Source: a virus
Lineage: Duplodnaviria; Caudoviricetes
Strand: one strand, 5' to 3'
Virus record (IMG/VR): IMGVR_UViG_3300042892_002922
Span: 222,846-286,845 of that record
Length of the DNA: 64,000 nt
Part shown: positions 2,746-49,316 of the stretch, piece after piece
Layout of the letters: every line of letters begins with the position of its first letter
Numbering within the stretch: position 1 is the stretch's first letter
Position numbers and translations under genes: made by a program
Notes under the pieces: model-generated
What the model was told of the DNA's origin: nothing
Seen by the model: only the letters and a program-made list of their open reading frames with translations
The model's database searches: none

Positions 2746-3180
2746 ATGATATACTGGTTAACAGGCCAACCCGGCGCAGGAAAAACAACCTTAGCAAAAT
2801 ACTTAGTGGAATACTTTCCGAAAGATGAGGTTACTCACATCGATGGGGATGACTTAAGGGACATCTTTAAAAACAAGGACTATTCCATAACAGGTAGAAG
2901 ATTAAACATCCAAAGAGCACAATACATTGCACAATTTATGCATAGTAAGGGACATAATGTTATTGTGTCCTTAGTTTCACCATATAGAGACCAAAGAGAA
3001 GAATTTAAATTTAGTACATCGGTTGTCGAGATTTATGTACATACCACAGAAGATAGAGGTAGAAACCAATTCCATGTTGAGGAATATGAACCACCATTAG
3101 AAAATTTTATAGACATAGATACAACAATAAAAAACGAAACAGATTCGTATTTTGAACTATTAAAAAAATTATCATTATGA
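2746..3180 (+). CDS. cysC: Adenylyl-sulfate (APS) kinase
   Basis: WLTGQPGAGKTT P-loop, IDGDDLR, VSLVSPY, YEPP; start moved to ATG 2746 (ORF track starts at 2719). Confidence 0.85.
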   Translation: MIYWLTGQPGAGKTTLAKYLVEYFPKDEVTHIDGDDLRDIFKNKDYSITGRRLNIQRAQYIAQFMHSKGHNVIVSLVSPYRDQREEFKFSTSVVEIYVHTTEDRGRNQFHVEEYEPPLENFIDIDTTIKNETDSYFELLKKLSL

Positions 3181-3692
3181 TGACAAATGGTATTATCATT
3201 GACAATTTTTTAGACAATGTTGATGAAATAAGAGAGGAAGCGTTGTTATTAGATTATACTAAATCATTACCTGAAAGTGAAGGTTGGAAAGGGTTTAGGT
3301 GTTTAAATGGAAACATGTTGACACTTGATTTACATGAAAAGATTAAAGAAAAGTTAGTTGAAACTAATATAAAATTTGATAATTGTGATATGAGGTGTTT
3401 TTTTCATTATACATTGGAAGAACATAATGTAGGTAAAAAAAACACACATCGTGATTATGGTTTTGATTATGCTGGGGTTTTATACCTAGCACCAAACCCA
3501 CAAAAAAATTCAGGTACGTCTTTTTATAATGATTTAGGTGAAGAAACCGGTTACTTGGAAAACGTTTATAATAGATTAGTAATTTATCCAGCGAATGAGT
3601 TACACTCTTTAAAAGAATCTTTTGGTAACGATATTAATAATGGTAGATTAACTTTCACGTTTTTTTGTAAATTAAAAAATAACAATATATGA
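3177..3692 (+). CDS. 2OG-Fe(II) oxygenase-like protein
   Basis: IIDNF start, HRD, AGVLYL, GTSFY, NRLVIYPANELHS, GRLT. Confidence 0.7.
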   Translation: MMTNGIIIDNFLDNVDEIREEALLLDYTKSLPESEGWKGFRCLNGNMLTLDLHEKIKEKLVETNIKFDNCDMRCFFHYTLEEHNVGKKNTHRDYGFDYAGVLYLAPNPQKNSGTSFYNDLGEETGYLENVYNRLVIYPANELHSLKESFGNDINNGRLTFTFFCKLKNNNI

Positions 3693-4069
3693 GTAAGAAA
3701 TATGCAATGTACATCGGTAGGTGGCAAAATTGGCATAAAGGTCACGAATGGTTGATCCGTCAACAAATGGACCAAGGTAAGAACATATGGGTAGCTATTA
3801 GGGATGTTGAAGTTGACGAGAACAACCCTAAAACAGCTCAAGAGGTTTTTCAAATGTTAATCCAGGAGCCCTTTTTTAACGAGAATTTTGATAAGATTTT
3901 ACTATCAATTATCCCAGATATCGAATCGGTTAATTACGGTAGAGGTGTTGGTTACGATGTAATTTATCATGAGCCACCGGCGGATGTTGCGGTAATAAGT
4001 GGAACTGCGATTAGAACTGGACATATGACCGCTGATGGTTCAATAAAATATGACCAAACAAAAGGATAA
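3689..4069 (+). CDS. Minimal HxGH nucleotidyltransferase (cytidylyltransferase-like fold)
   Basis: IGRWQNWHKGH and C-terminal ISGTAIR motifs. Confidence 0.75.
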   Translation: MSKKYAMYIGRWQNWHKGHEWLIRQQMDQGKNIWVAIRDVEVDENNPKTAQEVFQMLIQEPFFNENFDKILLSIIPDIESVNYGRGVGYDVIYHEPPADVAVISGTAIRTGHMTADGSIKYDQTKG

Positions 4070-4284
4070 TGATTGTAGAACGTAAACGACATATTGCGAA
4101 AACAATATCCTATCGCATTATAAGCACTATAATAGGTTTCCTTATAATGTGGTGGGTTAGTGGATCAATTAAGATTGGCGCGACCTTTGGTGTGGCTGAA
4201 TTGGTGTACAAACCTATTCAATATTACCTACACGAAAGGATTTGGTATAGATGGATAAAGTTCGGGGTAAAAGATAAAAAATAA
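4069..4284 (+). CDS. DUF2061-like small membrane protein
   Basis: RHIAKTISYRII...YYLHERIW pattern with two hydrophobic segments. Confidence 0.7.
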   Translation: MIVERKRHIAKTISYRIISTIIGFLIMWWVSGSIKIGATFGVAELVYKPIQYYLHERIWYRWIKFGVKDKK

Positions 4285-4308: not shown

Positions 4309-5796
4309 ATGAGAACAGTATTGATAGGATCAGATTTTATGTACGATAAGGATGGTAATTTAAGACCCATCGAAATAAACACTGCGGTTGGTTGGGATGG
4401 TCCCGAAAAAGTGGAAGACGATGCAGATTGTTTGGATTTAACAAGTTTATATCAATTTGTTGAGGATAATAATTTCCAAACGATACATTATGTTGGTGAT
4501 ATTGGTCCATTACACGTGACATTAATGACACATTATAGCGGAAGTTCTGTTACATATGAATTTCATGGGGTTGGAGCTACTTCCATTACAGTTCCATACA
4601 TAGAAGATACTGAAACGACTTTAATTATTAGGAGTGCATATGACACAACAGCACTAGTGGATGACACATATTGTAAGGATAAAATAGAGTTCATGAATCT
4701 AATTAAAGATTCTTCTTTTGGCTCCCAATTTGCGTACATTGACGAAAATAACACATTGGTGTCAAATATCACATCTATAAATGATAACGGCGAACACCCT
4801 AATTTTATTTTAAAATCTAGATTTCCAGGTTATGACAAGTTAATTTATCCAAAATTTTTTAAAGTTACAACTCAATCTGAATTAGACACTATAATAGCAA
4901 ATAATGTTACAAGTGAGTATTTTTTAATGGAGTACCTATGTAACGTCAATAAACTATGGGAAGGGCATTTAACGGTTATAAGAAGTTTAAACATTTTAGT
5001 CCCACCAAATTTAGAATCAATTCAAATTGGCCAATATACAAAATTGAATCAAAATATGTTACTAGATAATGTGACATATGATTCAATCACATTTGAAGTA
5101 TATTCAGATTTCAAAGAGAGTTATAGTACAAACCCACCTACCGGTTTTCAACCTAAATTATTGAATACTGATATGGTAGAAATGGCAGATGGGACATTAA
5201 AAACTGCATTGGATTTACAAATTGGGGACGTTATTAAAACAATTGAAATACCAAATGAAAAGGGAACTAGTATAGATAGTTACGTATCCTCCGAATTTGG
5301 GCTTACGTACGATACGTTGGTAAGTGATGCAATATATACAACTAATGTCGTAACCAAAAAACAAAAAGTAAACACCTTAACTTTTATAAATGAATTAACA
5401 TTTGAAGATGCTAGTACCTGGGAAGATACTATGGGCTCAAAGTATTTGATAGACAGAGAAGGTGTGGTTATGTTTAAATCATTATGGGGGATATTTCCAG
5501 GAGATGTGGTTATATTATTAGATACTACTGATGATAATATAAATTTTGTAAGAAAAACAGTTACATCAAATATTCAAGTTAAGAGAGTGTTCTCTGGTTG
5601 GTTTATTTCAGTTGATACCGCTATGTTATTTTTAACTAAAACAGCCGGGTCAACCAATAACGAATCATATGTTTCAATTGAACATAACCTTATATCTTGT
5701 CCCAATTGGACATGTACAAACGTTTGCTGGTCCGTCTGTCCATCATGTCCGAAGTATATGTCTTGTCAATCTAATTACTGTTTTCCAGTATGTTAA
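4309..5796 (+). CDS. Circularly permuted ATP-grasp-like domain + Hint domain + 35-aa Cys-rich tail
   Basis: N-terminal GSDFMYDKDGNLRPIEINT, FILKSRFPG, FLMEY; Hint block A-like LNTDMVEMADGTLKTALDLQIGDVI; terminal EHN followed by an 8-Cys peptide. Confidence 0.6.
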   Translation: MRTVLIGSDFMYDKDGNLRPIEINTAVGWDGPEKVEDDADCLDLTSLYQFVEDNNFQTIHYVGDIGPLHVTLMTHYSGSSVTYEFHGVGATSITVPYIEDTETTLIIRSAYDTTALVDDTYCKDKIEFMNLIKDSSFGSQFAYIDENNTLVSNITSINDNGEHPNFILKSRFPGYDKLIYPKFFKVTTQSELDTIIANNVTSEYFLMEYLCNVNKLWEGHLTVIRSLNILVPPNLESIQIGQYTKLNQNMLLDNVTYDSITFEVYSDFKESYSTNPPTGFQPKLLNTDMVEMADGTLKTALDLQIGDVIKTIEIPNEKGTSIDSYVSSEFGLTYDTLVSDAIYTTNVVTKKQKVNTLTFINELTFEDASTWEDTMGSKYLIDREGVVMFKSLWGIFPGDVVILLDTTDDNINFVRKTVTSNIQVKRVFSGWFISVDTAMLFLTKTAGSTNNESYVSIEHNLISCPNWTCTNVCWSVCPSCPKYMSCQSNYCFPVC

Positions 5797-5938: not shown

Positions 5939-6472
5939 ATGATACATTTCATACCAAATATTCTTACTAAGGATGAGTGTGAATACTTAACGAATCAATT
6001 TGATTTCGAAAGAAAATATCAAATCTCGGTGGATAATGAATATACTGGCACCAATATATCATATGGGTTTGCCCCTTCATTTGCGTTTAATACCTATTTA
6101 AATAAATTAAAATCAAAAGTGTTAGAATATAACAATAATTTTGATGATTTATTCAATGTAAACACATTTGTTAGGGAATATATGAACACCTCAATGTTAA
6201 AAAAACATTTAGATAGAAAAGACATTAGTGTTACTATGTCTATATGTTTAGAATCCACAATAAATAAAGAATGGCCGTTATGTGCGGAAATCGGAAATAA
6301 GGAATATTGTTTCAACACAAATATTGGTGACGGTATTTTATTATTTGATGCGGATAAAATCACACATTGGAGGGAACCCTTAATATGTCTGGAGAAAGAA
6401 AGAGTTGTCCAATTTTTTTTACATTGGAAACCTTCTGATTACGTCGCAAAAAAAACAAAATCATTATTATAA
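5939..6472 (+). CDS. 2OG-Fe(II) oxygenase
   Basis: LKKHLDR (HxD), GDGILF, HWREP, QFFLHW. Confidence 0.75.
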   Translation: MIHFIPNILTKDECEYLTNQFDFERKYQISVDNEYTGTNISYGFAPSFAFNTYLNKLKSKVLEYNNNFDDLFNVNTFVREYMNTSMLKKHLDRKDISVTMSICLESTINKEWPLCAEIGNKEYCFNTNIGDGILLFDADKITHWREPLICLEKERVVQFFLHWKPSDYVAKKTKSLL

Positions 6473-6483
6473 AAAAATAAATT

Positions 6484-7068
6484 ATGCCATTTACATATAC
6501 AATAGAGTCAACCTTTTTAACAAAAGAAGAATGTGATTTAATATTAGATTTTTCATTAAAAGAATTAAAATTAGTACCATCGGAAATTCTTACCAATTAC
6601 ACCGATGGTGGCGACGTTAATACCGATATTAGAAAATCAAATCAAGTATTTTACCCCTATTATAAAAAATTTCCATTTTTATTAGAAAAAATGAGTAAAT
6701 TATTAAATCAACATATTTTTGTTAAAGGGTTCGATTTAGATTTTAAAGAAAGTCAATTTCAGTTTACTGAGTATCATCCAGGCGGACATTTTGGCTGGCA
6801 TAGAGATGCTCATGGAAAAAAAATAACGGATTATGACAGGTATTGTTCATTAGTGATACAACTAAATGATGAGTATGGAGAGGGTGATTTACAAATAAAA
6901 GATGATCAGAATGGGACCCTAACAGTTGAAAAGGGTACAGGAAATTTGATATTATTTTTATCAAATATTGAACATAGAGTAGTGCCAGTAAAAAGTGGGA
7001 TTAGATATACACTAGTTAATTGGGTGAAATTAAAACAAAAAAAAGATTATAAAAAAACACTTTTATAG
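6484..7068 (+). CDS. 2OG-Fe(II) oxygenase (P4H/PKHD-like)
   Basis: FGWHRD, SLVIQL, GDLQI, HRVVPVKSGIRYTLVNW. Confidence 0.85.
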   Translation: MPFTYTIESTFLTKEECDLILDFSLKELKLVPSEILTNYTDGGDVNTDIRKSNQVFYPYYKKFPFLLEKMSKLLNQHIFVKGFDLDFKESQFQFTEYHPGGHFGWHRDAHGKKITDYDRYCSLVIQLNDEYGEGDLQIKDDQNGTLTVEKGTGNLILFLSNIEHRVVPVKSGIRYTLVNWVKLKQKKDYKKTLL

Positions 7069-7069
7069 T

Positions 7070-7387
7070 ATGAAAATAAATTTTAAAGAAATATTAAATG
7101 CGTGGTATAATGTTATAAATCACACACCAGAACAAAAGGAATTAGCAGATAAAAGATTCGCAATATGTTTAGAATGCCCCTCTAAAATAGAAATTTTAAA
7201 ATACAAGAAATGGCTTTTTAAATGTAAAGAATGTGGTTGCCCTTTAGGCGCAAAAGTTTACACTGAAACAACATATCTTACTAAAGACAAATCTTGTCCA
7301 CTTGATAAATGGAAAGAAGTTGAAATGGAATTTATGAGTAAACATAGTGACACGATTAAATATAAAACTAAAAAAACATTTCTTTAG
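7070..7387 (+). CDS. Small Cys-rich, probably metal-binding protein
   Basis: CLECP...CKECGCPL...CPLDKW. Confidence 0.65.
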   Translation: MKINFKEILNAWYNVINHTPEQKELADKRFAICLECPSKIEILKYKKWLFKCKECGCPLGAKVYTETTYLTKDKSCPLDKWKEVEMEFMSKHSDTIKYKTKKTFL

Positions 7388-7389
7388 TT

Positions 7390-8079
7390 ATGGGTTATTT
7401 AATAAACGATGACCTTTTATGGGTGATCACCCCTAAATGTGCTAGCGACTCAATAGAAACTGCATTATTAAACTCAAGTTTAAATTTAAAAAAATATAGC
7501 GAACACTTCGAACAACATACCCATATGCATATACCACTAAACGAGTGCTTAACTAAGTTTGGTAAAAAAGAAACAATATGTATCACTAGAGATTGGTTTG
7601 AAAAATGGTTAAGTTCATTAAATTTTATTTGGGATTATATAGAATTATATAGTGAATATGAACCAGTATGTAAATGGGAGGACATCAATAATAATGTTAT
7701 TTATGAGATATTTGATAGCGAATTTGTAAATAAACTTTACTCATTAAATCATACCTCTAATGAAGAATGTTTTTTGAAATTATTAAAAAGGAACACCGAA
7801 GATATTATAAACGTACCCAAAGAAATTTATGGAATAATAATAACTCTAATATCTGAACGCTATTGGAAAAGTAATGTAAAATGCACATATGAATTTGATA
7901 TTAAAAAATTAGACGATTTTGTCAATTTCATTGAAAATAGGTTTGGTGAAAAATTAATAATAGAAAAGAAAAACGTATCTACAAAAAGACCAAATAAATT
8001 AATAGTAAATAATGAATTGAAATCTTTTGTTTGGGAAAAATTTGAAAAAATATTTGAAAAAAGAAATCAATTAATTTAA
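7390..8079 (+). CDS. Sulfotransferase-fold-like protein
   Basis: VITPKCASDSI resembles the 5'-PSB loop; downstream ITRDWFEKWLS resembles the 3'-PB R..S motif. Confidence 0.5.
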   Translation: MGYLINDDLLWVITPKCASDSIETALLNSSLNLKKYSEHFEQHTHMHIPLNECLTKFGKKETICITRDWFEKWLSSLNFIWDYIELYSEYEPVCKWEDINNNVIYEIFDSEFVNKLYSLNHTSNEECFLKLLKRNTEDIINVPKEIYGIIITLISERYWKSNVKCTYEFDIKKLDDFVNFIENRFGEKLIIEKKNVSTKRPNKLIVNNELKSFVWEKFEKIFEKRNQLI

Positions 8080-8080
8080 T

Positions 8081-8749
8081 ATGGCAACTATTTGGACATT
8101 TGGGGATTCATTTACTTCTGGAGACGGGTGTGTAGAAAACCTAAGAATTAGAGACGGTGATTTTAGATATTATAACGAATATAAAAAACTAGGCAGTGAT
8201 ATATGGCCTAATTTATTAGGTAAAACTTTAGGATATGACGTAAAAAATCTAGGAAAAAGCGGTGCAAGTAATGACTATATTTTAGATTCTATTATTGATA
8301 ATTTTAACATGATAGAACCAAATGATGTGGTGATAATTGAAAAAACATTTTACCAAAGATTTGATATACCTAAATCAACGGGTGATGGGTTTCAAACAAT
8401 TTATGCTGAAGGACTTTATCAACTTTCTATTGATTTAAAAATGGAAAGATATTTTTGTGAAGATAAATTAGAAATTGAAACGGTATTAAATTATGGTGTT
8501 TTATTTTCCGACAATAAATTATTTAAAGAAAGACAAGATAAACGATTTGAATTTATACAAGCACAATTAAATAATAAAACAGATAAAATATTAATATGGG
8601 ATGTTTTAGATTTTTTAGACGGTAAAATTGAAACAATAGGTCAACACACTGAGGGTAATATAAAAGATTATCATTTTAGTTTTAATGGTCATAAAAGATT
8701 TAGCGAATTTCTATATAAAAAATTATATATTAAACCCTCATTAGTTTAA
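8081..8749 (+). CDS. SGNH/GDSL-like hydrolase or acyltransferase
   Basis: FGDSFT, NLGKSGASND, DYHFSFNGH. Confidence 0.7.
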   Translation: MATIWTFGDSFTSGDGCVENLRIRDGDFRYYNEYKKLGSDIWPNLLGKTLGYDVKNLGKSGASNDYILDSIIDNFNMIEPNDVVIIEKTFYQRFDIPKSTGDGFQTIYAEGLYQLSIDLKMERYFCEDKLEIETVLNYGVLFSDNKLFKERQDKRFEFIQAQLNNKTDKILIWDVLDFLDGKIETIGQHTEGNIKDYHFSFNGHKRFSEFLYKKLYIKPSLV

Positions 8750-9481
8750 ATGTTAGTCGATAAAAAATTTATTTTTATAAGTTTACCAAGATGCGCATCA
8801 ACATCATTTATGATTAGGTGTGTTAAAAACAAAATACCAATAGAGCATTTCAACTCAAACCATGATAATCAGTTGATTAAAATCAATGAATGGGAAAAAA
8901 TGGGTAATGAAGAATTGGCGGATAGATTAGTACATGCGCACGAACCATTACATATGTTACAAGAAAAATTTGGGACGAACAACCAAATTATTTCAATAAA
9001 ACGAAATAAGTACGATAGATTTTTATCTTTATGGAAACACATCATAGACGAATTACACAGAATTAACAAACTTGATATTGCTGACATCTTTTCAAAATTA
9101 ACAACTAATGATCTGTTTGTTAATATTAAACCAAATGACATTTATAATTCGGAAAATAGAATTAAAGTTATTGATAATTTTTTATCTAGGTTAGAAATTT
9201 CAAAAGAAGAATCTTACACTAAAAATATGTTAGATATATTGTTTATGCCAGTAGTTGAACTTACAAATAACGACCCAAATATTATCTGGTTTGATATTAA
9301 CAGTTTGAGAGATTTAGAAAATTGGGTGTCAAAAAAACTAAATAGAGATTTTAAAATGGAAAAAATAAATTCAAGTAAACATTTTAATTCAGTAATGGAG
9401 AACGATGATAATTTTAAACAGAAATATGATAATCTTTATAAAGAATTTGACCAAAGAAAAACAACTAAAACATTATTGTAA
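8750..9481 (+). CDS. Sulfotransferase family 2-like protein
   Basis: FISLPRCASTS; RNKYDRFLSLW (R.P..R..S-like). Confidence 0.6.
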   Translation: MLVDKKFIFISLPRCASTSFMIRCVKNKIPIEHFNSNHDNQLIKINEWEKMGNEELADRLVHAHEPLHMLQEKFGTNNQIISIKRNKYDRFLSLWKHIIDELHRINKLDIADIFSKLTTNDLFVNIKPNDIYNSENRIKVIDNFLSRLEISKEESYTKNMLDILFMPVVELTNNDPNIIWFDINSLRDLENWVSKKLNRDFKMEKINSSKHFNSVMENDDNFKQKYDNLYKEFDQRKTTKTLL

Positions 9482-10650
9482 TGGAAATTCAATTTTGGTA
9501 TAGCGATATTTTACCAAATACAAATATTAGAAATTCAATCGAAAAAATAGATAGTGACATCTTATTTAAAAATATCCACACCGATAAGGTAGATGTTACA
9601 AAATTAAATTTTTTATTTTTTTTGTTAGAAACTGAATGGACTAATTCCGATATCCCAAACATAGCGTATACTCATTCTAGTGAATTTATTGAATTACTAA
9701 TTAAGTTACAATCTGAAAATTTCTATTTTATGTGTAATAATTCTGGGGAAGCCGAACTTTGGGTGGATAATTTATCCTTGAATTTTTTTAATTTGTTAAA
9801 AAAAAATAAAATTGATTTTAACAGATTAATAATTGTAAATAACGATTCATCTAAAATTGGTATAGGTAAAACAAAATATGGGGATTTTATATTAAACACC
9901 TGTTTTTTTCCTAATTTCTTTTTATCTACCTATGAGCATTTAAAGTCATATGTAACTGAATTAAACCCTAACACCATACCTGATAAAAAATTCTTATGTT
10001 TAAATAGAAGAATGGGTTATGAAAAATATAAATTAATCGAGAGGTTATATCATATGGGGTTGTTAAATGACACCAGATTTTCTTGGGTAAAAAATAGCAC
10101 GAATAAAAATCTGTTAAATAAAGAATTACTTAATGAATTAAACATAGATGTTGATAACTTTAACCCTATTCAGTTAGAAGATGATGTAATGTATGGTGCT
10201 GATTTAGTTATGGAAAAGTATCTTTACACCATAAACCCCAAATGGTATTATAAAAGTAAAGTTAATATTATATTGGAAACAATGCTATACCCAAATTCAA
10301 TTCATCTGACAGAAAAAACCTGGAAAGCAATTTATTTAGGTGTCCCGTTTGTTATATATTCACCATCTAAACACTATCTTAAAACCTTAAGGGATATGGG
10401 ATTCAAGACATTTAATTCTGTGATTAATGAGGATTATGATGAGATGCTAGGTAAAGATAAAATAACACAAGTTATAAAAAGCGCTGAAGAACTGGCTAGT
10501 ATCTATGACACCCCCAAAGTATTAGATATATGTAGATTTAACCAAGAATTATATTTTAATTTTCAACACAGAAAAAAAATATATAATGAGTTTTTTTTAA
10601 ATAAAATTTGTGATGTTAAAAACTTAACAATTCCTAAAACATTAATTTAA
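9481..10650 (+). CDS. Conserved phage hypothetical protein, possibly glycosyltransferase-like
   Basis: FLCLNRR, ET...HLTEKTWKAI, PF, LRDMGFKTF, EDYD pattern; function not established. Confidence 0.5.
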   Translation: MEIQFWYSDILPNTNIRNSIEKIDSDILFKNIHTDKVDVTKLNFLFFLLETEWTNSDIPNIAYTHSSEFIELLIKLQSENFYFMCNNSGEAELWVDNLSLNFFNLLKKNKIDFNRLIIVNNDSSKIGIGKTKYGDFILNTCFFPNFFLSTYEHLKSYVTELNPNTIPDKKFLCLNRRMGYEKYKLIERLYHMGLLNDTRFSWVKNSTNKNLLNKELLNELNIDVDNFNPIQLEDDVMYGADLVMEKYLYTINPKWYYKSKVNIILETMLYPNSIHLTEKTWKAIYLGVPFVIYSPSKHYLKTLRDMGFKTFNSVINEDYDEMLGKDKITQVIKSAEELASIYDTPKVLDICRFNQELYFNFQHRKKIYNEFFLNKICDVKNLTIPKTLI

Positions 10651-11700
10651 ATGGGTAATAAAATTGATTTAAAAAATTATACGTGTAGTGTGCCATTTAC
10701 ATCATTAGAAATACATAACAATGTTTGTTTTGTGTGCTGTCCATCCTGGTTACCAAACAAAGTAGAACTTAGTGAAATTCCATTAAAAGATGTTTATAAT
10801 AGCGAACCAATTATTGATATAAGAAACTCGATATTAGATGGTTCATTTAGATATTGTAGTCAAGAGCTTTGTCCTTATTTAAGTAAATTAGTGAAGTATG
10901 GTGCGGAATCTGGGCCAGTCACTTTAAAATCAAATTCAAATGTTAATAGCCCTATTGTAAAAAATAACGCACCAGATTATTTGATGATGAATTTTGATAG
11001 AACATGTAACTACAAATGTCCATCATGTAGAGTTGATTTAATAGTTGAAAATAGTGAGGGTATAAAACGTGTAGAAAAAACAATAGAGGAGATTGATAAT
11101 CACTACTCGAAATATGTTAAAACCCTATATATTACTGGATCAGGGGATCCGTTTGTTTCTGTCGGATTCAGAAATTATCTAAGAAATTTTAACCCTAAAA
11201 AATACCCAAACTTAAATTCCATACACCTACACACAAATGCGTCTATGTGGAATAAAGAAATGTGGGATAGTATGCCAAACATACACGGATATGTCCACTC
11301 TTGTGAAATTAGCATCGACGCTGGTACAAAAGACACCTATGAAAATAAAACCAGGTTGGGTGGTAAATGGGATAATTTAATTGATAATTTAAAATTCATA
11401 AGCACTCTACCAATTTCAGTTAAAACATCATTTGTGGTTCAAGATTCCAATTACATGGAAATGGGTATTTTTTACAACTTAATGTACTCAATATTTGGTA
11501 AAAGAGTAAATGTGTTTTTTGGTAAGATAACTAATTGGGGGACATTTTCAGAAGGTGAATTTAAATTAAAACAAGTATGGGATACGGAACATCCAGAACA
11601 TGAGTTATTTAAAAAAGAGTTTAATAAAGTATGGAAAAATGAAAACCTTTTTCATAATTTATATGAGTTTATTGACAACACAAATAAAACTTTAATATAG
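10651..11700 (+). CDS. Radical SAM protein, paralog of 1592-2713
   Basis: CNYKCPSC, ITGSGDPF, EISIDAGTKDTYENKTRL shared with 1592-2713. Confidence 0.85.
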   Translation: MGNKIDLKNYTCSVPFTSLEIHNNVCFVCCPSWLPNKVELSEIPLKDVYNSEPIIDIRNSILDGSFRYCSQELCPYLSKLVKYGAESGPVTLKSNSNVNSPIVKNNAPDYLMMNFDRTCNYKCPSCRVDLIVENSEGIKRVEKTIEEIDNHYSKYVKTLYITGSGDPFVSVGFRNYLRNFNPKKYPNLNSIHLHTNASMWNKEMWDSMPNIHGYVHSCEISIDAGTKDTYENKTRLGGKWDNLIDNLKFISTLPISVKTSFVVQDSNYMEMGIFYNLMYSIFGKRVNVFFGKITNWGTFSEGEFKLKQVWDTEHPEHELFKKEFNKVWKNENLFHNLYEFIDNTNKTLI

Positions 11701-12261
11701 ATGAGAATTTTAATACTATCACATACAAGATGTGGTTCTACCACATTATGTAAATGGATATCAAAAGAATTGAATTTTGAAGTAGATTATGATCATTACG
11801 ATGCTAACACATTTAATTCAATTTTCATTAAAAATAATATAATAAAAAAAATTGTTATCGAAGAATACAATCCACCAAATGAAGTTATTGAAAAATTTGA
11901 TAAAGTTATTTGTTTAAGTAGGGAAAATAATATTGACAGTGCCATAAGTTTTATTAATGCTGATAACAAAAGCAGGTGGCACGACATATATGAAATAACA
12001 AATGAGTGGATTGAAGATAATAAAAATAAAATAATAGAAACTGTTTACAAATATGAACAATTAAAAACCTTATTAAAAAATAAAGATTTATTTCAAATAA
12101 CGTATGAAAATATGTATATTAATAAAATAGACGTTAATAGAGTTATTAGTTATTTAAACATTGAAAACCCAAAACATTTGGATATGCTTGATTATGATAA
12201 AAAATATAGAAAAGACACATATACTTTAACACATGATTTTAAGAGAAAAAATATCATTTAG
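11701..12261 (+). CDS. Sulfotransferase-fold-like protein
   Basis: ILSHTRCGSTTL, LSREN, ITYE. Confidence 0.55.
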   Translation: MRILILSHTRCGSTTLCKWISKELNFEVDYDHYDANTFNSIFIKNNIIKKIVIEEYNPPNEVIEKFDKVICLSRENNIDSAISFINADNKSRWHDIYEITNEWIEDNKNKIIETVYKYEQLKTLLKNKDLFQITYENMYINKIDVNRVISYLNIENPKHLDMLDYDKKYRKDTYTLTHDFKRKNII

Positions 12262-12763
12262 TAAAGATGAGTGTGATTACATAATAAATTTATCCAAAGA
12301 GTTGGATGAACTTAAACCATTTGGTTATGATGACAATGTTAATAAAGAAAAAATAACAATTAGATATTTTGTTTGGGTTATCAATAGAAACAATAAAACC
12401 CAATGGATATTTGATAAAATTCAAACGTATTTTATAAATAAAACTAATATAAAGATAAAAAAAGAATTAGATAAAATATATATACACAAATATGACACCG
12501 GCCAACAATTTGAAAAACATGCTGACACATATTATAAAACACAAATACACAATGTAGGGGTATGTTTAAACAATGATTATGATGGAGGTGAATTTGTTTT
12601 ATATAATCCAGAAGAACAATTACCAAAAGAAACGGGTAACATATATACTTTCCCTAGTCAAAGAATACATGAAGTAAAAAAAATAATAAAGGGTGAAAGG
12701 TGGAGCATTATTGGATTTTTACATATTGATAATTTAGATTTCCCTAAAAAATCACTAATATGA
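12233..12763 (+). CDS. 2OG-Fe(II) oxygenase
   Basis: EKHAD, CLNNDYDGGEF, HEVKKIIKGERWS. Confidence 0.85.
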   Translation: MILREKISFSKDECDYIINLSKELDELKPFGYDDNVNKEKITIRYFVWVINRNNKTQWIFDKIQTYFINKTNIKIKKELDKIYIHKYDTGQQFEKHADTYYKTQIHNVGVCLNNDYDGGEFVLYNPEEQLPKETGNIYTFPSQRIHEVKKIIKGERWSIIGFLHIDNLDFPKKSLI

Positions 12764-13317
12764 AAATTGGAATAACAGGACATTCTAACGGAATTGGAAA
12801 TGACATTTATTCAAATTTAATAAAAGAATATGATGTTATAGGATTTAGTAGAAGTAATGGTTTTGATATTAAAAATACGGATAAAATTATAGAACAATTG
12901 GATGATTGTGATATTTTTATAAACAACGCTTACGAAGGAAACTATCAAACAATATTATTTGAATTAATTTTTGATAAATGGAAATTTTTACCAAAAACAA
13001 TTATTAATATGAATAGCAGTTGTGTGTATCATTCATCCGATTGGTCGCCAGAATATGCAAATAATAAAAAAGAGTTAAAAGAAGTATCTTTAAATGCGAT
13101 TAGAAATAATAAAAATAAAAAAGTTAGGGTCATAAATTTATATCCATCCACCTTATCAACTCATATGGGGTTTGAAAGTTTAAATAAATTAGATACTGAA
13201 AATCTTGCAAAAATTATAAATTGGTTAATAAAACAACCACAAGAAATAGAAATTAGAGAGATGAGTATATATTGTACAACATTGGAGAAAGAATTTAAAA
13301 CAAATAAATTAATATGA
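12760..13317 (+). CDS. Short-chain dehydrogenase/reductase-like protein
   Basis: ITGHSNGIG Rossmann motif, INNA, Y..NKK. Confidence 0.7.
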   Translation: MKIGITGHSNGIGNDIYSNLIKEYDVIGFSRSNGFDIKNTDKIIEQLDDCDIFINNAYEGNYQTILFELIFDKWKFLPKTIINMNSSCVYHSSDWSPEYANNKKELKEVSLNAIRNNKNKKVRVINLYPSTLSTHMGFESLNKLDTENLAKIINWLIKQPQEIEIREMSIYCTTLEKEFKTNKLI

Positions 13318-14084
13318 AATCAATAAAATTTTGGAATAAAAGCGGATTCGATGTTGCAACTTATAAATGGAATTTATCAGAAAGACGTAATAAAACATTT
13401 AATGGCTCTGGTTCGGATGATAGTGAAACCAATACCTACACATATAATGAACTAGGATTCAGAGGTGATTCAATATACAAGGATGGTTTTAGAATTCTGT
13501 CTGTCGGTTGTTCACATACGGAAGGTGTGGGGGTAAATGACTGGGAAACTTGGCCGCATATATTTTCTAGGTTAATACCTAATGGTATTGATTTAAATGC
13601 TGGGTTTGGTGGTAGAAGTAATGATTACATTGCTAGGTGTATTGTGTCCTTAATTGACACCTTTAGACCCAATCTGGTTAATCTAATGTACACATACCCC
13701 TCAAGAAAAGAATACTACAAGTTTAATGGGGATTTAGAGCCCTTTCATATGACCCCCTGGGGATATTTCAAAGAAGATTCGGAAGGTGTTGATGAATACA
13801 AGGCAATCGCAAAGATAACCCATGATGAAAATGATTTGATTAATTGGTATAAAAATCATTTATTAATAACCAATTTCCTATCACTAAGAAAAATCCCATA
13901 TACTTGGAATGGTTCTTTTCTAATGGATGAAGTTATATCAGATAAACATCGTTTTGATGGTGACTATGGTAACTTCAGAGAGTTTTCCGTTGACGGTAAA
14001 CATGCAACAGGAAAACACAATGAAGAATATGCCAAAAATTTATATGACTTCATTAAGAAAAACTTCCCAACATATATCCCTTAG
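13314..14084 (+). CDS. SGNH-like protein
   Basis: VGCSHTEG, NAGFGGRSND, DGKHATG. Confidence 0.6.
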   Translation: MKSIKFWNKSGFDVATYKWNLSERRNKTFNGSGSDDSETNTYTYNELGFRGDSIYKDGFRILSVGCSHTEGVGVNDWETWPHIFSRLIPNGIDLNAGFGGRSNDYIARCIVSLIDTFRPNLVNLMYTYPSRKEYYKFNGDLEPFHMTPWGYFKEDSEGVDEYKAIAKITHDENDLINWYKNHLLITNFLSLRKIPYTWNGSFLMDEVISDKHRFDGDYGNFREFSVDGKHATGKHNEEYAKNLYDFIKKNFPTYIP

Positions 14085-27495: not shown

Positions 27496-27762
27496 ATGAA
27501 ACAAGAAACTAAAGGTAAATTTATTAAATCAGAAAAAACTTTGGTAGTTCTAGAAACTATCGGTGTAATAATGAGAATTATGGCATTCGGTATGTTATCC
27601 ATATTAAACAAGGATACACCGTTTTTATTGATGTGGATATGGAATACTATCGATGCGTTAATATTAACTTATTGTGCCTGGGAAAGAAGCAACACACCAT
27701 ATATCATACTTAACATATTCTGGTTAATAGTTGGTGCTGTTGGGATTTATAACAGTATTTAA
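27496..27762 (+). CDS. Small membrane protein
   Basis: Three hydrophobic segments. Confidence 0.55.
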   Translation: MKQETKGKFIKSEKTLVVLETIGVIMRIMAFGMLSILNKDTPFLLMWIWNTIDALILTYCAWERSNTPYIILNIFWLIVGAVGIYNSI

Positions 27763-28862
27763 ACTTTTCTCTTAATCTCAATTTTCATATTACCAGTACG
27801 ATATTCACCCGGATCATATTGTGGTATACTTAATCTTAAACGATAAAGTGTCATAATATCTTCTGGTGTAAATTCACCTTCTTCATATACCATAACATCA
27901 ACAGTTTCAGCGAACAAGAATTTACTTCTTAAATCATAATTAGTTGTCTTCTGTTGAACTTCAATATAATCTTCTGGTATCTCACCCAAATCAATTTTGT
28001 CGAAGAATGGCTCTATCTCAAATAAGCGATTTCTATTTCTAGTTGTTAACCCCATTGAGAATGTTTTAAATACAAAAACAGAATCTTCCCAATATCTAAT
28101 TTCATTAAACATCGAAATAGGTAATCCCCATTTCCTCACAAAATTTCTATTAGAATTCATTTCGATTTGAATTCTATTGTGTTTAAATTCTTCGCTGAAT
28201 CTAGATGTTTGACTAACAAAATGATAAACAACCGCTCTATTAGTCGTCTTTAAATCATAACCCTTTAGTTTGGTTCTGATAATAAAATCATCATCTTCAC
28301 AAAACGCTGGGAAAAAACTAAATCCATCGAAGTGTCCAACATCCTCGAATAATTTTTTATATCCACTCATAAAGAATGTACCACCGCTAACAATCTTGCT
28401 CTCACGGTTTCTTTGTTCCAGATATTGATTAAATAAATCGTACCTAAAATCAAGAAATGATGAGCCGAGGTCCATGATTTCTTTCCCCGGCCTAATATGA
28501 CCTTTAAATATCGGGGGCTCAACAGTCGTGTAACATAATAATGTCTTTTCATCTAAATCTTCTTCTAATGCTTCTAAAAAACCATTACCAATAACCATAT
28601 CATTATGGATTAGAACCAATTTCTCGGTGTCTACCAGCTTGATTCCGGCGTTATATGTATCGGAGAATGGTAACTTATCATCGTCGTGAATAAATGACAA
28701 ATTTTCATCCATTAACGACTCTAACCATTCTTTGGTACCATCATTAGAACCACCACTACTAATCACTAATGGTGTTGTTGGATACAACTCCCTTAAGTAT
28801 TTATAACATTCTTTAGTTATAGATAGGTTATTGTAAACAGCTAATACGAAACTTATATTCAT
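27759..28862 (-). CDS. GT2 family glycosyltransferase
   Basis: ISFVLAVYN, LIHNDM, EDDDF, VYHF. Confidence 0.8.
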   Translation of the reverse strand: MNISFVLAVYNNLSITKECYKYLRELYPTTPLVISSGGSNDGTKEWLESLMDENLSFIHDDDKLPFSDTYNAGIKLVDTEKLVLIHNDMVIGNGFLEALEEDLDEKTLLCYTTVEPPIFKGHIRPGKEIMDLGSSFLDFRYDLFNQYLEQRNRESKIVSGGTFFMSGYKKLFEDVGHFDGFSFFPAFCEDDDFIIRTKLKGYDLKTTNRAVVYHFVSQTSRFSEEFKHNRIQIEMNSNRNFVRKWGLPISMFNEIRYWEDSVFVFKTFSMGLTTRNRNRLFEIEPFFDKIDLGEIPEDYIEVQQKTTNYDLRSKFLFAETVDVMVYEEGEFTPEDIMTLYRLRLSIPQYDPGEYRTGNMKIEIKRKV

Positions 28863-29691
28863 TTATGTAATCTTCAATATTTTTTTGTGGTTTCCACCCC
28901 AATAATTTTTTAGCTAACGAACTATCGCACAGTGTGTTTTGTGCTTCACCAGGTTTATCGTCCATGTATACTCTCTCACCGCCAAACATATCTGCAATTT
29001 GGTTAATGGAGTAATTTTTACCTCGACCAAGTTCAAAGGTATTCCCCCAAGATTCATTTTCTTTAATTTTAATTAAACCATCAACAATATCGTCAACGTG
29101 TGTAAAATCTCTTTTCTTTTTACCATTACCATAAATTGTTAATGGTTCATTCTTTTCTGTTAAGTTTTCCCATCTACCGATTAATGTTGTGTAACCACCA
29201 GTTTTAAGGTGATGTGGTCCGTATACATTATAAAACCTAGCTATGGATGATTTAAGATTATAATGTTCCTGATTCAATGCAATAATTTCTTCACCAATAC
29301 TTTTACTAAAGGTATAAGGGTTTTTAAATTTACCACTATGGTGTGAACTACTACCTGCATAAATTAATGGTATATTATACTCACCACAAAAATGCGCTAA
29401 TAGAAATGTAGCGGTAGCGTTATTGTTAAAATAAGTTACAGGTCTTTCAAATGATGGTTGAATTCTAGCGATAGCGGCTAAATGGTAAACAACATCTATT
29501 GTGTCACCAAAATACGCCTTACCGATGCTTTCTTTAATGTCATGTTCAATGTACTCAGCACCTTCAACATGATTTGATTTAACACCTGTTGTATAATTGT
29601 CGAATGATGTCACTGTGTGACCTTCAGCAATTAATCTTTTAATTAGATTAGTGCCAACAAAGCCGGCACCACCAGTTACAACTACATTCAT
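28828..29691 (-). CDS. NAD-dependent epimerase/dehydratase
   Basis: VTGGAGFVG, YHLAA, PYTFSK, RFYNVYGP, RDFTHVDD. Confidence 0.9.
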   Translation of the reverse strand: MNVVVTGGAGFVGTNLIKRLIAEGHTVTSFDNYTTGVKSNHVEGAEYIEHDIKESIGKAYFGDTIDVVYHLAAIARIQPSFERPVTYFNNNATATFLLAHFCGEYNIPLIYAGSSSHHSGKFKNPYTFSKSIGEEIIALNQEHYNLKSSIARFYNVYGPHHLKTGGYTTLIGRWENLTEKNEPLTIYGNGKKKRDFTHVDDIVDGLIKIKENESWGNTFELGRGKNYSINQIADMFGGERVYMDDKPGEAQNTLCDSSLAKKLLGWKPQKNIEDYINEYKFRISCLQ

Positions 29692-29697
29692 TATTTT

Positions 29698-30465
29698 TTA
29701 GATTAAGTTAAAATTTTTTAAACCACTATTTTCGCTATCAATGTTTGAGTTTTGAGTGCCAGATATATAACCTCTTTCACCTTCAACACAAAATTCTGAA
29801 ACTCTATAATATGGTGAACCCTGTAAAACTTTAATACGGTTTTTATTTATAAAATTCATTAATGGGTAAACAGTATTATTCCAGTCACTAACTTGATGTA
29901 CATCCCTATTACCAAATTTCTCACCAACCCTTGTTAATTTTACCATAGATAAATCAAATTTACCACCAATTTTCTCTATCATAGATTTTTTAAAAAATTC
30001 ACAAGAACCTCTTAACATACCAATTGGCGCACCCACACTGTTTGTCCATATTTCCCATTTGTCAAATAGTTCGTGTTCAATAACTTTTTTAAACCAATCA
30101 TCTTTAAGGATCAAATTATCGTCATGTGTAAATAACATGAACTCATAATTTTGATAATCATATTCTTCTAACCATTGATTGGAACATCCCCAATCACCAA
30201 CAGTGTTTGGATATTCTTTATAAGTCCAACCTAGATTTTCAATTTCTTCAATTGTTGCAATTTTAGAATATAGTTTTTCATCTAAATGTTTTCTATCACC
30301 TTTTAAAACCACATCTTTCTTTTCTATTTCAGAATATTGTGGATCTCTATGTGAAACACAAAACATATCCATTGACCAATCATCTGGAAGTATTTGTTTA
30401 GATATACTTTCATAAAAATGTAATGGGTAGTGCCACCCAGAACACACTACTGCAATTTTTTTCAT
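29698..30465 (-). CDS. Putative glycosyltransferase (GT-A-like)
   Basis: LFTHDDN DxD-like motif; inside the GT operon. Confidence 0.45.
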   Translation of the reverse strand: MKKIAVVCSGWHYPLHFYESISKQILPDDWSMDMFCVSHRDPQYSEIEKKDVVLKGDRKHLDEKLYSKIATIEEIENLGWTYKEYPNTVGDWGCSNQWLEEYDYQNYEFMLFTHDDNLILKDDWFKKVIEHELFDKWEIWTNSVGAPIGMLRGSCEFFKKSMIEKIGGKFDLSMVKLTRVGEKFGNRDVHQVSDWNNTVYPLMNFINKNRIKVLQGSPYYRVSEFCVEGERGYISGTQNSNIDSENSGLKNFNLI

Positions 30466-31019: not shown

Positions 31020-31020
31020 A

Positions 31021-32205: not shown

Positions 32206-32274
32206 TTACTATTTTATTTATTACAATTTAATTATTTTTTTTTATATTATAAAGGGGTTTAAATGCACCCCCAT

Positions 32275-49151: not shown

Positions 49152-49316
49152 ATGGAATATATTCTACCATTTGCTATTATGTTTATCATCGTCGGGTTCA
49201 TCTCTTGGAGATGGGTTGTCGGTATTGACTATATGAAAGAAAACCATCCCGATTATAAGGGAGAAGATTTTTTAAATTGGGGTGATGACGATAATGACAA
49301 GAATCAAATCATGTAA
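49152..49316 (+). CDS. Small membrane protein (54 aa)
   Basis: Translated by hand MEYILPFAIM...HPDYKGEDF. Confidence 0.55.
   Translation: MEYILPFAIMFIIVGFISWRWVVGIDYMKENHPDYKGEDFLNWGDDDNDKNQIM

Follow-up and report, generated by a model that had tools for sequence, protein, structure and literature searches.

Why should a run of neighbouring phage genes encoding enzymes of unrelated folds end, one after another, in almost the same few residues? The question is raised by eleven successive ORFs at positions 5939-13317 of the 64,000-nucleotide stretch analysed here (the window), for which the original prediction, made from the sequence, had proposed a phage-encoded address label.

The tagged island

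All eleven translated ORFs close with the strict pattern [K/N]-[T/S/N/Q/K]-[L/I/F]-[L/I/V] (hereafter, the tag), and all lie on the (+) strand. The run opens with a 177-residue protein of family F19 (5939..6472; ends KTKSLL), a family with the tag on all 13 of its members, and a P4H-like 2OG-Fe(II) oxygenase of 194 residues (6484..7068; YKKTLL; Pfam PF13640). These are followed by a small Cys-rich, Zn-ribbon-like protein of 105 residues (7070..7387; TKKTFL) from family F7, which is found in 35 of 46 tag-rich genome groups and ends with two hydrophobic residues in 95% of its members. The next protein, of 229 residues (7390..8079; KRNQLI; family F5), is putatively sulfotransferase-like; it has a PKCASDS motif in its sequence and no Pfam match. 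Then come an SGNH/GDSL hydrolase-like protein of 222 residues with weak Pfam GDSL matches (8081..8749; IKPSLV; family F21), a second, paralogous sulfotransferase-like F5 protein of 243 residues (8750..9481; TTKTLL), and a 389-residue protein of unassigned function (9481..10650; IPKTLI; family F3). The run is completed by a 349-residue radical SAM enzyme (10651..11700; TNKTLI; Pfam PF04055) of family F1, all members of which have two hydrophobic terminal residues; a P-loop/sulfotransferase-like protein of 186 residues (11701..12261; KRKNII; family F6); a 176-residue 2OG-Fe(II) oxygenase (12233..12763; PKKSLI; Pfam PF13640), whose start lies 29 nt upstream of the preceding stop; and an SDR-like protein of 185 residues with a weak adh_short match (12760..13317; KTNKLI). 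Immediately beyond is an SGNH-like gene of family F2 (13314..14084, (+) strand) that is untagged here (ends FPTYIP); its orthologs elsewhere are mostly tagged (KQSLI, PKSLI, SKLI), and 78% of F2 proteins have hydrophobic residues at both final positions.

Translation bore out the predicted endings along with the varied stop codons (TAA, TAG, and TGA) and stop-to-next-ATG distances (-29 to +11), and paralogs beyond the island lack the tag as had been claimed: a radical SAM protein (1592/1631-2713) ends NFNHLL and an SGNH protein (49309-49998, (-) strand) ends EIDLIT. Across the whole 80.6 kb record, the strict tag closes 11/11 ORFs in the island vs. 4/104 outside (Fisher 1.9e-12), and the enrichment also holds when the outside set is confined to tightly coupled genes (3/58; Fisher 2.0e-10) or when only two hydrophobic terminal residues are scored (11/11 vs. 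11/104; 1e-9). In a complete relative of 335.6 kb (G001), 7-9 of the 10 genes of the homologous island are tagged, compared with 14-47 of 407 elsewhere (3e-8 to 7e-8). Internal, non-terminal background in these proteomes is 1.1% for the strict pattern and 8% for two hydrophobics, and control islands from AT-rich phages with distant homologs of one family sit at the background rate (10/379). The consensus, [K/N]-[T/S/K/N]-[L/I]-[I/L]-COOH, is a genuine short linear motif of the C terminus that is under selection. Its penultimate Leu is the most conserved position, Lys occurs at -4 in 48% and Thr/Ser at -3 in 46% of tails, and the motif rides on a flexible, lysine-rich extension (net charge of the last 12 residues +1.3 in tagged vs. 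+0.8 in untagged proteins). The flavour of the tag does not co-vary by genome.

Several lines of evidence strongly support the earlier claim that the label acts at the protein level and is not the initiation signal of the next gene. Codon usage at the tag matches background (Ser at -3, TCA 0.38 and AGT 0.35; Thr, ACA 0.48 and ACT 0.33), with the Leu codon TTA at 0.73 vs. 0.66 in gene bodies. Codons at the last two positions differ in 62%-64% of ortholog pairs, and the synonymous share of codon differences there is 37%-45% vs. 5%-8% in the linker, while entropy drops from ~3 bits over the 8-12 residues before the terminal pair to 0.4-1.0 bit within it. The tag is kept in orthologs down to ~30% identity despite altered gene order and spacing, and also in genes with no coupled downstream gene; when the next gene is 41-100 nt away, 29% of such genes are still tagged. 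Further, four translationally coupled genes of the same operon, all on the (+) strand, named from Pfam and taken as internal controls, are untagged: an APS-kinase-like gene (2746-3180; tail KKLSL), a DUF6445 gene (3177-3692; KNNNI), an HxGH nucleotidyltransferase-like gene (3689-4069; DQTKG), and a gene for a DUF2061 membrane protein (4069-4284; KDKK). Coupling therefore does not require the tag, which is likewise never present on coupled genes of families F9, F10, F15, and F4 in the same operon.

Linkage of the tag to an ATP-grasp-Hint gene

Upstream of the island lies a gene (4309..5796, (+) strand; family F4) for a protein that is never itself tagged. Using this family as the sole anchor, we collected 55 unique loci, in which 79%-87% of genes at positions +1 to +4 downstream are tagged, the rate returns to background by +12, upstream genes are 12%-35% tagged, and the anchor family itself is 0% tagged. 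The family is held by 42 of 46 tag-rich genome groups vs. none of 22 tag-poor groups, and the linkage persists down to 29% identity among its homologs. The tag thus marks enzymes encoded just downstream from this family. In family F3, distant homologs are untagged in phages lacking the anchor (tagged-versus-F4 contingency, 10/1 vs. 9/32; p = 5e-5). Other genes recur in these operons: radical SAM family F1 is in 43/46 tag-rich groups, a count biased by F1 having been a query, and DUF2061, a two-helix membrane protein with 84% mean column identity, is in 23/46 tag-rich groups and occurs once in a tag-free group.

Pfam gave 0 hits and there was no sequence-level family match for the anchor protein; its description draws on an AF2 model (pLDDT 82.5) and fold comparison (Foldseek, VIA). 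Residues 1-278 are predicted to form a circularly permuted ATP-grasp domain of the GspS/YgiC/glutathione-synthetase type (YgiC Z 8.4, GspS 7.8, glutathione synthetases 7.3-8.3), a fold that also matches TTLL, ArgX/LysX, and RimK; residues ~280-460 resemble Hint/BIL domains and inteins (Z 12-14) and close with an invariant H459-N460; and the C terminus is a hypervariable Cys-rich peptide of ~35 aa. An alignment of 39 members shows this variable tail together with invariant residues, including an E22-x-N24 motif, among proteins that are 24%-77% identical. Long variants carry tandem Hint domains and no Cys-rich peptide, and their neighbours are tagged all the same. The original link between the tag and an ATP-grasp-like ligase encoded just upstream is therefore strengthened by strict positional co-occurrence and by a predicted fold shared with ligases of peptide C-terminal carboxylates.

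Within the same operons, protein families are either ~75%-100% tagged or 0% tagged (F15, F9, and F10 being among the latter). Enzymes of the tailoring kind carry the tag (radical SAM, 2OG oxygenases, SGNH, sulfotransferase-like, and SDR-like proteins, and the Zn-ribbon protein), whereas enzymes whose products are diffusible cofactors or sugars do not (an epimerase, a DegT aminotransferase, APS kinase, and the HxGH nucleotidyltransferase-like protein), a division that speaks for docking. Glycosyltransferases of these islands are untagged, and in G001 a few tags occur at a great distance from the island, on a UDP-glucose dehydrogenase and two GDSL proteins; both observations count against a role in docking.

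The 2OG oxygenases indicate how the tag is attached. The KKTLL end of the 6484 protein recurs in 93 of 120 close homologs, and the tag is present in 34 of the 35 nearest cluster representatives at 50% identity, whereas distant homologs stop at VxWxxGPxF[KR], right after the last strand, without an extension. The tag of this family sits on a ~12-residue flexible extension; the model of the 6484 protein places the end of the last strand at residue 185 and shows the tail as coil (pLDDT ~60). From the cluster survey and the modelled tail, the tag in these oxygenases is an appended module.

Possible readers of the tag

What might read such a tail? The class I PDZ-ligand pattern invoked originally fits the third-last S/T of 8/11 island ORFs, but the penultimate position, variable in PDZ ligands, is here a conserved Leu, and S/T is third from last in only ~46% of tails, and the PDZ reading finds no support. 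The search that had been suggested for a PDZ, TPR, or shell gene came up empty: neither this record nor G001 yielded a domain of the PDZ, S41, TPR_8, or encapsulin-shell type.

We tentatively favour, at somewhat less than even confidence, a docking handle that a single, invariant partner would read; the most plausible candidate is the 4309 protein's ATP-grasp domain. A tag flavour that does not co-vary by genome fits an unchanging reader, and the structural relatives of this domain (YgiC, GspS, and glutathione synthetases) bind and activate a peptide's free C-terminal carboxylate. Against this candidate, the anchor family evolves fast (24%-77% identity) while the tag is nearly constant, and the reader could instead come from the host or be a better conserved protein of the phage, for example DUF2061. 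Precedents for the arrangement exist. In PTS1 ([SAC]-[KRH]-[LM]-COOH, read by Pex5) and KDEL, the signal likewise consists of 3-5 terminal residues on a flexible tail with a free end, common to many enzymes of unrelated fold and served by one receptor; these are, however, eukaryotic organelle systems, and the phage tag has K, then T/S/K/N, with two hydrophobics last. In T4 (gp43, gp33, and gp55 tails on the gp45 clamp) and T7 (gp2.5 and gp4 tails on the polymerase), a shared short tail docks on a phage hub, although those tails are acidic or aromatic and belong to DNA-handling proteins, whereas the tag is basic-aliphatic, on tailoring enzymes, and its hub is a candidate.

The gene content also recalls RiPP biosynthesis, in which RRE domains of the tailoring enzymes recognise a leader peptide: a gene whose product ends in a hypervariable Cys-rich peptide precedes genes for radical SAM, oxygenase, and further tailoring enzymes, and a common recognition element would link enzymes to substrate. 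Here the polarity is reversed, the common element being on the enzymes and not on the precursor, and the "leader" would be a 460-residue ATP-grasp-Hint protein. Because long variants without the Cys-rich peptide still have tagged neighbours, recruitment to a Cys-rich substrate cannot be the whole story. Cyanophage genomes contain tandem 2OG-dioxygenase arrays and dioxygenase-sulfotransferase-PAPS synthetase operons, in islands where many unrelated 2OG dioxygenases, sulfotransferases, and PAPS genes adjoin fibre genes and the enzymes are predicted to modify peptides or fibre proteins (Iyer, Abhiman, de Souza, and Aravind 2010, PMC2938197). The likeness lies in this gene content; passages retrieved from the paper by term search make no mention of a shared tail, the ATP-grasp-Hint anchor gene does not belong to those arrays, and the distant 2OG homologs found here are without the extension.

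An unlikely alternative is that the tag is a degron for a host Clp-type unfoldase-protease or a phage ClpC-like/ClpP pair, by which tailoring enzymes would be turned over quickly or on schedule. Signals for ClpX and ClpA, such as the MuA-type RRKKAI and the ssrA-type LAA, similarly place basic residues before small or nonpolar ones on an exposed tail with a free carboxylate, and nonpolar C-termini destabilise proteins. The tag is likewise basic, then doubly nonpolar, exposed, and flexible, and its lack of co-variation fits an invariant reader. G001 has genes for a true ClpP (194 bits) and for a two-ring ClpC-like ATPase that lacks the N domain and bears a VGF loop for ClpP docking; this ATPase is widespread in viral contigs, including another that has the 4309 family. 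Degrons, however, are not confined to one operon, and the tag is limited to neighbours of 4309 (14/407 outside the island in G001), not being found on regulators or other unstable proteins; the exemption of cofactor makers in the same operons is hard to explain by timing; and the steep fall in tagging with distance from 4309 favours a role specific to the pathway.

Rather improbable, in our view, is that the tag is a site of covalent modification or ligation. In one version, the ATP-grasp domain would activate the terminal carboxylate and join it to an amine, which might be a polyamine, the tag's own Lys (giving cyclisation), or the amino end of the Hint-released peptide; in another, the ever-present radical SAM enzyme would modify the tag. 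The ATP-grasp relatives (YgiC/YjfC, GspS, glutathione synthetase, TTL/TTLL, RimK, and LysX/ArgX) acylate amines using peptide or protein carboxylates, C-terminal or side-chain, and YgiC and YjfC are peptide-spermidine ligases (Pederick 2023, as cited in PMC12568646). The 4309 domain shares their permuted order and E-x-N metal motif, its putative catalytic residues are invariant, the conserved nucleophiles at -4 and -3 adjoin the free carboxylate, and the Hint domain with its invariant His-Asn should release a peptide amino terminus. It differs from these ligases in its fused Hint domain and Cys-rich tail, the likeness being one of predicted fold. Nor is it obvious why 6-15 different enzymes should be modified; each 4309 protein would have a single peptide to give, some tags are without Lys or Thr/Ser, and the radical SAM enzyme is itself tagged.

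More doubtful still is another form of localisation, either a weak polybasic-plus-hydrophobic inner-membrane anchor, possibly placing the enzymes beside DUF2061, or a signal for import or loading into a phage compartment or capsid. Net basic tails with two terminal hydrophobics, the conserved membrane protein of many operons, the tag's presence in jumbo phages, and the existence of C-terminal cargo peptides in encapsulins and PTS1 speak for it. Two hydrophobic residues would nevertheless make a very weak anchor; a specific Leu followed by Ile/Leu, with K and T/S conserved, suggests a pocket and not lipid; DUF2061 is present in only half of the tag-rich groups; no encapsulin-like shell was seen in the two records searched; and the tag is carried by enzymes of biosynthesis and not by proteins of the virion or of DNA metabolism. 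Scarcely credible, finally, is a by-product of nucleotide constraint, either from next-gene initiation in an AT-rich operon or from recombination sites for cassette shuffling: although the genome lacks SD sequences, carries an A-rich run at -13 to -10 ahead of its start codons that overlaps codons -4/-3 of an abutting upstream gene, slightly favours ATA as last codon through ATGA overlaps, and belongs to phages with shuffled gene order, this reading is already contradicted by the codon, coupled-gene, and AT-rich control data above.

The tag has the look of a protein address or docking label that has yet to be described, and the tag-plus-anchor layout is seen in several hundred or more contigs of uncultivated phages, jumbo phages among them. 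The tagged enzymes constitute an exchangeable toolbox for tailoring; if the tag does serve as a docking handle, any enzyme cassette bearing the tail would be brought to one common assembly or substrate.

Eleven tagged genes and their relatives

Eleven consecutive plus-strand genes between 5939 and 13317 encode proteins ending, in order, in KTKSLL, YKKTLL, TKKTFL, KRNQLI, IKPSLV, TTKTLL, IPKTLI, TNKTLI, KRKNII, PKKSLI, and KTNKLI; translation of the ORFs reproduced the endings listed in the original prediction letter for letter. We refer to this shared ending, approximately [K/N]-[T/S/K/N]-[L/I]-[I/L]-COOH, as the tag. All three stop codons (TAA, TAG, and TGA) are in use in the cluster, and stop-to-next-ATG distances range from -29 to +11 nt. 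Pfam matches among the 11 proteins are limited to two 2OG-Fe(II) oxygenases (6484 and 12233; genes are named by their start coordinates), one radical SAM protein (10651), and weak GDSL and SDR assignments, and three more appear to be sulfotransferase-like according to P-loop motifs that we read in their sequences. The region is very AT-rich (25%-28% G+C), a scan of the window found no tRNAs, and the cluster had no megablast match among GenBank phages.

Within the 80.6-kb viral source record (CheckV completeness 20%, genes called by simple ORF picking), the strict tag pattern is present on 11 of 11 cluster genes versus four of 104 others (Fisher test, P = 1.9e-12), and the enrichment persists when gene spacing is controlled for (11/11 vs. 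3/58 equally tightly coupled genes outside the cluster, P = 2.0e-10). Inside proteins, the background frequency of the strict pattern is 1.1% of positions, and that of two successive hydrophobic residues is 8%. In a complete 335.6-kb relative (G001), seven to nine of the 10 genes of the homologous island are tagged, versus 14-47 of 407 in the rest of the genome; the tagged proteins beyond the island include two GDSL proteins, a UDP-glucose dehydrogenase, an SNF2 helicase, and several of no assigned class, and because these classes are mixed, they decide little. Control islands from other phages, in which the 9481 family (389 aa, no assigned function) has distant homologs only, carried the tag at the background rate (10/379).

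An IMG/VR search with the products of 9481 and 10651 yielded 131 related loci, a set with a selection bias, as both queries belong to tagged families. Across orthologs, the ending is kept from 90% down to ∼30% identity despite altered gene order and spacing. The observation of the tag is confirmed, and its reach widened to hundreds of phage contigs. When 1504 unique ORFs of related loci were clustered into families, tagging was bimodal. About 16 families are 75%-100% tagged, including 2OG oxygenases, radical SAM proteins, two SGNH families, two sulfotransferase-like families, a Zn-ribbon family, the 5939 family, and an SDR-like family. In the same operons, the families of 4309, of the HxGH nucleotidyltransferase-like protein 3689, of the DUF2061 protein 4069, of APS kinase, and of GT+FkbM fusions are 0% tagged, and the carbamoyltransferase family never shows the strict pattern, with two hydrophobic end residues in one third of its members. 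Likewise untagged are the nucleotide-sugar enzymes and most glycosyltransferases in the minus-strand cluster at 27.7-36.2 kb. This second glycan cluster (27759-36198), most of whose products lack the tag, encodes a GT2, an NAD-dependent epimerase/dehydratase, a DegT aminotransferase, a TOD1/MUCI70-like protein, two GT1 proteins, and a methyltransferase; tag-like ends occur there on the methyltransferase (SKILL) and on a 255-aa protein (KNFNLI). As we interpret the annotation, tags would mark tailoring enzymes, whereas makers of diffusible cofactors and sugars would go without.

Directly beyond the run, the SGNH-like protein encoded at 13314-14084 ends in FPTYIP; related phages mostly have tagged orthologs of it (KQSLI, PKSLI, and SKLI), and it is a natural tag-loss variant.

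The tag as a feature of the protein

Codon usage in the tag follows the background of the same genes, both for Ser (TCA 0.38, AGT 0.35) and for Thr (ACA 0.48, ACT 0.33, ACC 0.11, ACG 0.07), and the Leu codon TTA is used at 0.73 against a background of 0.66. At the last two positions, 62%-64% of family-member pairs have different codons, and 37%-45% of these differences are synonymous, versus 5%-8% in the linker. Entropy is ∼3 bits over the 8-12 residues that precede the tag, drops to 1-2.4 bits at -3 and -4, and is lowest, 0.4-1.0 bit, at -2 and -1. Tagging does not depend on a close neighbor, with 29% of genes still tagged where the next gene lies 41-100 nt away, and the coupled families F4 (that of 4309), F9, F10, and F15 of the same operons are 0% tagged. 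Background codon usage, synonymous change, spacing, and untagged coupled families therefore lead us to reject an initiation signal for the next gene and to hold, with the original prediction, that the tag is a protein label; that it is a nucleotide-level artifact of any sort is contradicted by the same evidence and is very improbable. The start regions themselves have no Shine-Dalgarno sequence, either in the record or upstream of any start codon in the window, and are depleted in G and enriched in A at -13 to -10 before the ATG. Such an A-rich pattern without Shine-Dalgarno sequences is typical of SD-poor hosts such as Bacteroidota.

In a logo of 890 tagged proteins, position -4 is mostly K (0.48) or N (0.18); -3 is T (0.30), K (0.21), S (0.16), or N (0.13); -2 is L (0.68) or I (0.22); and -1 is I (0.63) or L (0.26), with Lys also enriched at -5 to -7. 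When 1.8 billion cluster representatives were searched exhaustively for 2OG oxygenase homologs, 34 of the 35 nearest clusters bore the tag; among 120 close homologs of the oxygenase, 93 end exactly in KKTLL. Remoter homologs are without the extension and terminate directly behind the last strand (VxWxxGPxF[K/R]). In the AF2 model of the oxygenase (pLDDT 89), this strand runs to residue 185, and residues 186-194 are coil with pLDDT ∼60. Because remote homologs are without it and the modeled tail is coil, we take the tag to be an appended, exposed short linear motif. Testing whether genomes have flavors of the tag of their own, by within-family shuffling over 75 genome groups, gave no signal save z = 2.4 at the last residue. 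This uniformity suggests a reader that hardly changes.

The original prediction had likened the endings to class I PDZ ligands, a reading contradicted by the conserved penultimate Leu and by the lack of any PDZ protein in the two phage records searched. The penultimate residue, variable in PDZ ligands, is here the most constrained (L 68%, I 22%; entropy 0.35-1.0 bit); S or T occupies the third-last position in eight of the 11 endings in the window and in 46% overall (K 21%, N 13%), and the hydrophobic last residue holds by the definition of the set. In the source record and the complete relative, there was no significant match to PDZ, PDZ_2, or PDZ_6, the sole PDZ_2 match in the source record being below cut-off (E = 0.02, 11.6 bits), and no match to Peptidase_S41; positive controls of this domain search were matched in 11-14 of 14 genomes. 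Nor did a TPR or shell gene of the sort that had been envisaged come to light in these two records, where neither TPR_8 nor Linocin_M18 (encapsulin) was matched.

Association with an ATP-grasp and Hint gene

The link that the original prediction drew from the tag to the ATP-grasp gene just upstream (4309-5796, plus strand) is borne out both by gene position and by presence across genome groups. An IMG/VR search with the 4309 family alone, free of the bias that comes from querying with two tagged families, recovered at least 268 relatives. In the 55 unique loci anchored on this family, genes +1 to +4 are tagged in 79%-87% of cases and background is reached by +12, with the tag on 12%-35% of upstream genes and never on the anchor itself; neighbors are tagged by the same rule even where the 4309 homolog is 29% identical. 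The family is present in the fetched stretch of 42 of 46 genome groups with at least five tags, the four exceptions being short or end-truncated stretches, versus none of the 22 groups that have one tag or no tag. Further, tagged members of the 9481 family associate with 4309-bearing loci (P = 5e-5). Among 185,579 prokaryotic genomes, the 4309 family matched once, at 44% identity, in a MAG labeled “Candidatus Diapherotrites archaeon”; the contig in question (L226) is 2 kb long and in all likelihood a piece of phage DNA that was mis-binned.

The model of the 4309 product (pLDDT 82.5) resolves an N-terminal domain, a Hint domain, and a hypervariable Cys-rich peptide of ∼35 residues. Residues 1-278 resemble permuted ATP-grasp enzymes, with moderate Z values to YgiC (8.4), GspS (7.8), and glutathione synthetases (7.3-8.3), a resemblance also to Cp1B, and weaker matches to TTLL, ArgX/LysX, and RimK. 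Foldseek matched the domain to the yeast and soybean glutathione synthetases, the domain order is permuted, and E22 and N24 of the Mg-binding E-x-N motif are invariant. A profile search of the family against PDB sequences returned non-significant matches only, and there were no Pfam or PHROGs matches. Enzymes of the YgiC, GspS, glutathione synthetase, TTLL, ArgX/LysX, and RimK types join a carboxylate to an amine. YgiC/YjfC and GspS use a peptide's C-terminal carboxylate for this (Pederick et al. 2023, as cited in PMC12568646). ATP-dependent ligation of a peptide's C-terminal carboxylate to an amine is a candidate function of the domain.

Residues 280-460 form a Hint or bacterial-intein-like domain (Z 12-14 to inteins, BIL domains, and hedgehog Hint) with an invariant terminal His459-Asn460. 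Position 1 is Lys rather than a Cys, Ser, or Thr nucleophile (PKLLDTD..., in short forms that fit the junction pattern), so cleavage would be expected at the C-terminal end only. Long variants of 616-913 aa (e.g., L114:1230-3968, 912 aa; L125:10210-12060; L130:4075-5937) are without the Cys-rich peptide and end in ...VHNK, and their neighbors are still tagged; what stays constant in the system is therefore the ATP-grasp domain, the Hint chemistry, and the tagged enzymes, and not the Cys-rich peptide. In these variants, the degenerate Hint domain is followed by canonical ones, one to three in tandem, which begin with Cys and end in HN, an unusual arrangement behind an ATP-grasp domain. The idea that the long variants are fused to a tagged enzyme, as a Rosetta stone, was ruled out, as their extra length is these tandem domains. 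A hypervariable core peptide after an invariant His-Asn, followed by radical SAM, 2OG oxygenase, and other enzyme genes, is RiPP-like; the ever-present precursor peptide of such clusters is missing from the peptide-less 616-913-aa variants.

Several features of these loci deserve mention in their own right. A 71-aa DUF2061 membrane protein (4069-4284) is encoded between the HxGH nucleotidyltransferase-like gene, which itself follows an APS-kinase-like gene, and 4309. Its mean column identity across these phages is 84%, far above that of any adjoining enzyme, and it may be part of a PAPS module or a hub. One 211-kb IMG/VR phage contig has two copies of the 4309 family ∼38 kb apart (L188 and L202), with two tagged neighbors at one copy and about ten at the other. 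In several related phages, the run of tagged genes is followed by a conserved intergenic sequence, approximately ATTTGGTAATGTCAAATATTTGTCGTATAT (e.g., in L090 just after 5718, in L073 after 10344, and in L122 after 9062); it could be a promoter or other regulatory site.

Possible readers and roles of the tag

The protein label and its linkage to 4309 stand from the original prediction, and its PDZ reading does not; docking, degradation, and ligation remain rivals and are weighed here in decreasing order of probability. That the tag is a docking handle read by one invariant partner is a serious possibility, at somewhat less than an even chance, and we favor it because the motif needs a free end on a linker, is pathway-specific, and spares enzymes with diffusible products. 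The most plausible reader, by analogy, would be the ATP-grasp domain of the 4309 protein, because the chemistry of its family begins by binding the terminal carboxylate of a peptide. A nearly unchanging reader would fit the invariant ATP-grasp active-site residues, a host factor, or the conserved DUF2061 protein equally well. Co-folding of 4309, DUF2061, and the tagged 2OG oxygenase gave a median score of 0.23, where the mark is 0.32, although one run reached 0.54; these scores speak neither for binding nor against it.

A Clp-type degron is an unlikely alternative, though one that fits an exposed tail (coil, pLDDT ∼60) with K at -4 to -7 and L or I at -2 and -1, much like MuA and ssrA signals. 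The complete relative encodes a bona fide ClpP (L143:12530-13204, plus strand, G001 212.5-213.2 kb, 194 bits) and a two-ring ClpC/ClpA-like ATPase (L138:9705-11714, minus strand, G001 109.7-111.7 kb) with a GGGVGF ClpP-docking loop, a UVR motif, and no N-terminal domain; this ATPase has at least 587 relatives in IMG/VR.

It is similarly doubtful that the 4309 protein reads or ligates protein C-termini for the phage, in which case it would bind the ...K-T/S-L-I-COOH end of every tagged enzyme and might join it covalently to an amine. Under such a mechanism, the ATP-grasp domain would bind each terminal carboxylate, and the bound end may then be ligated to the protein's own peptide freed by Hint cleavage, to a polyamine, or to a lysine of the tag. 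The covalent version by itself, whether ligation or another modification of the tail, we regard as improbable. A membrane or compartment signal, with weak support, is less probable again.

Eukaryotic organelles provide well-known cases of short C-terminal address labels common to unrelated enzymes, and a few phage replisome proteins have such labels too. The format of the tag is most like that of PTS1/Pex5 and of the C-terminal tails on replisome proteins from T4 and T7, its sequence style most like that of MuA/ssrA-type Clp signals, and its genomic logic most like that of RiPP clusters, although the polarity of recognition is reversed here. The gene content most resembles that of the cyanophage dioxygenase arrays and the dioxygenase-sulfotransferase-PAPS operons in Iyer et al. 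(2010; PMC2938197); the distant 2OG homologs found in this analysis have no tail. Searches of the open-access literature turned up no description of this tag, or of such a label organizing viral biosynthetic or tailoring enzymes, and nothing specific on DUF2061 function or on this phage group. The tag is of a known kind, that of C-terminal address or docking motifs, and we think it rather unlikely that it represents something new in kind, a viral protein that reads or ligates the C-termini of other proteins.

The tag is under strong selection and widespread: IMG/VR has at least 268 relatives of the anchor gene, and tagged protein clusters number in the hundreds. The tag provides a simple rule for picking out the genes of one functional unit in hypervariable phage islands, and ties those genes to a peculiar ATP-grasp-Hint-peptide gene. 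If a reader is found, the five-residue tail could serve as a portable recruitment handle. Should 4309 read or ligate C-termini, the virus would encode a new chemistry for tagging or assembling proteins, in which five residues let any enzyme cassette plug in. The tag system would also help to explain why aquatic phages have large arrays of 2OG oxygenases, radical SAM enzymes, and sulfotransferases.
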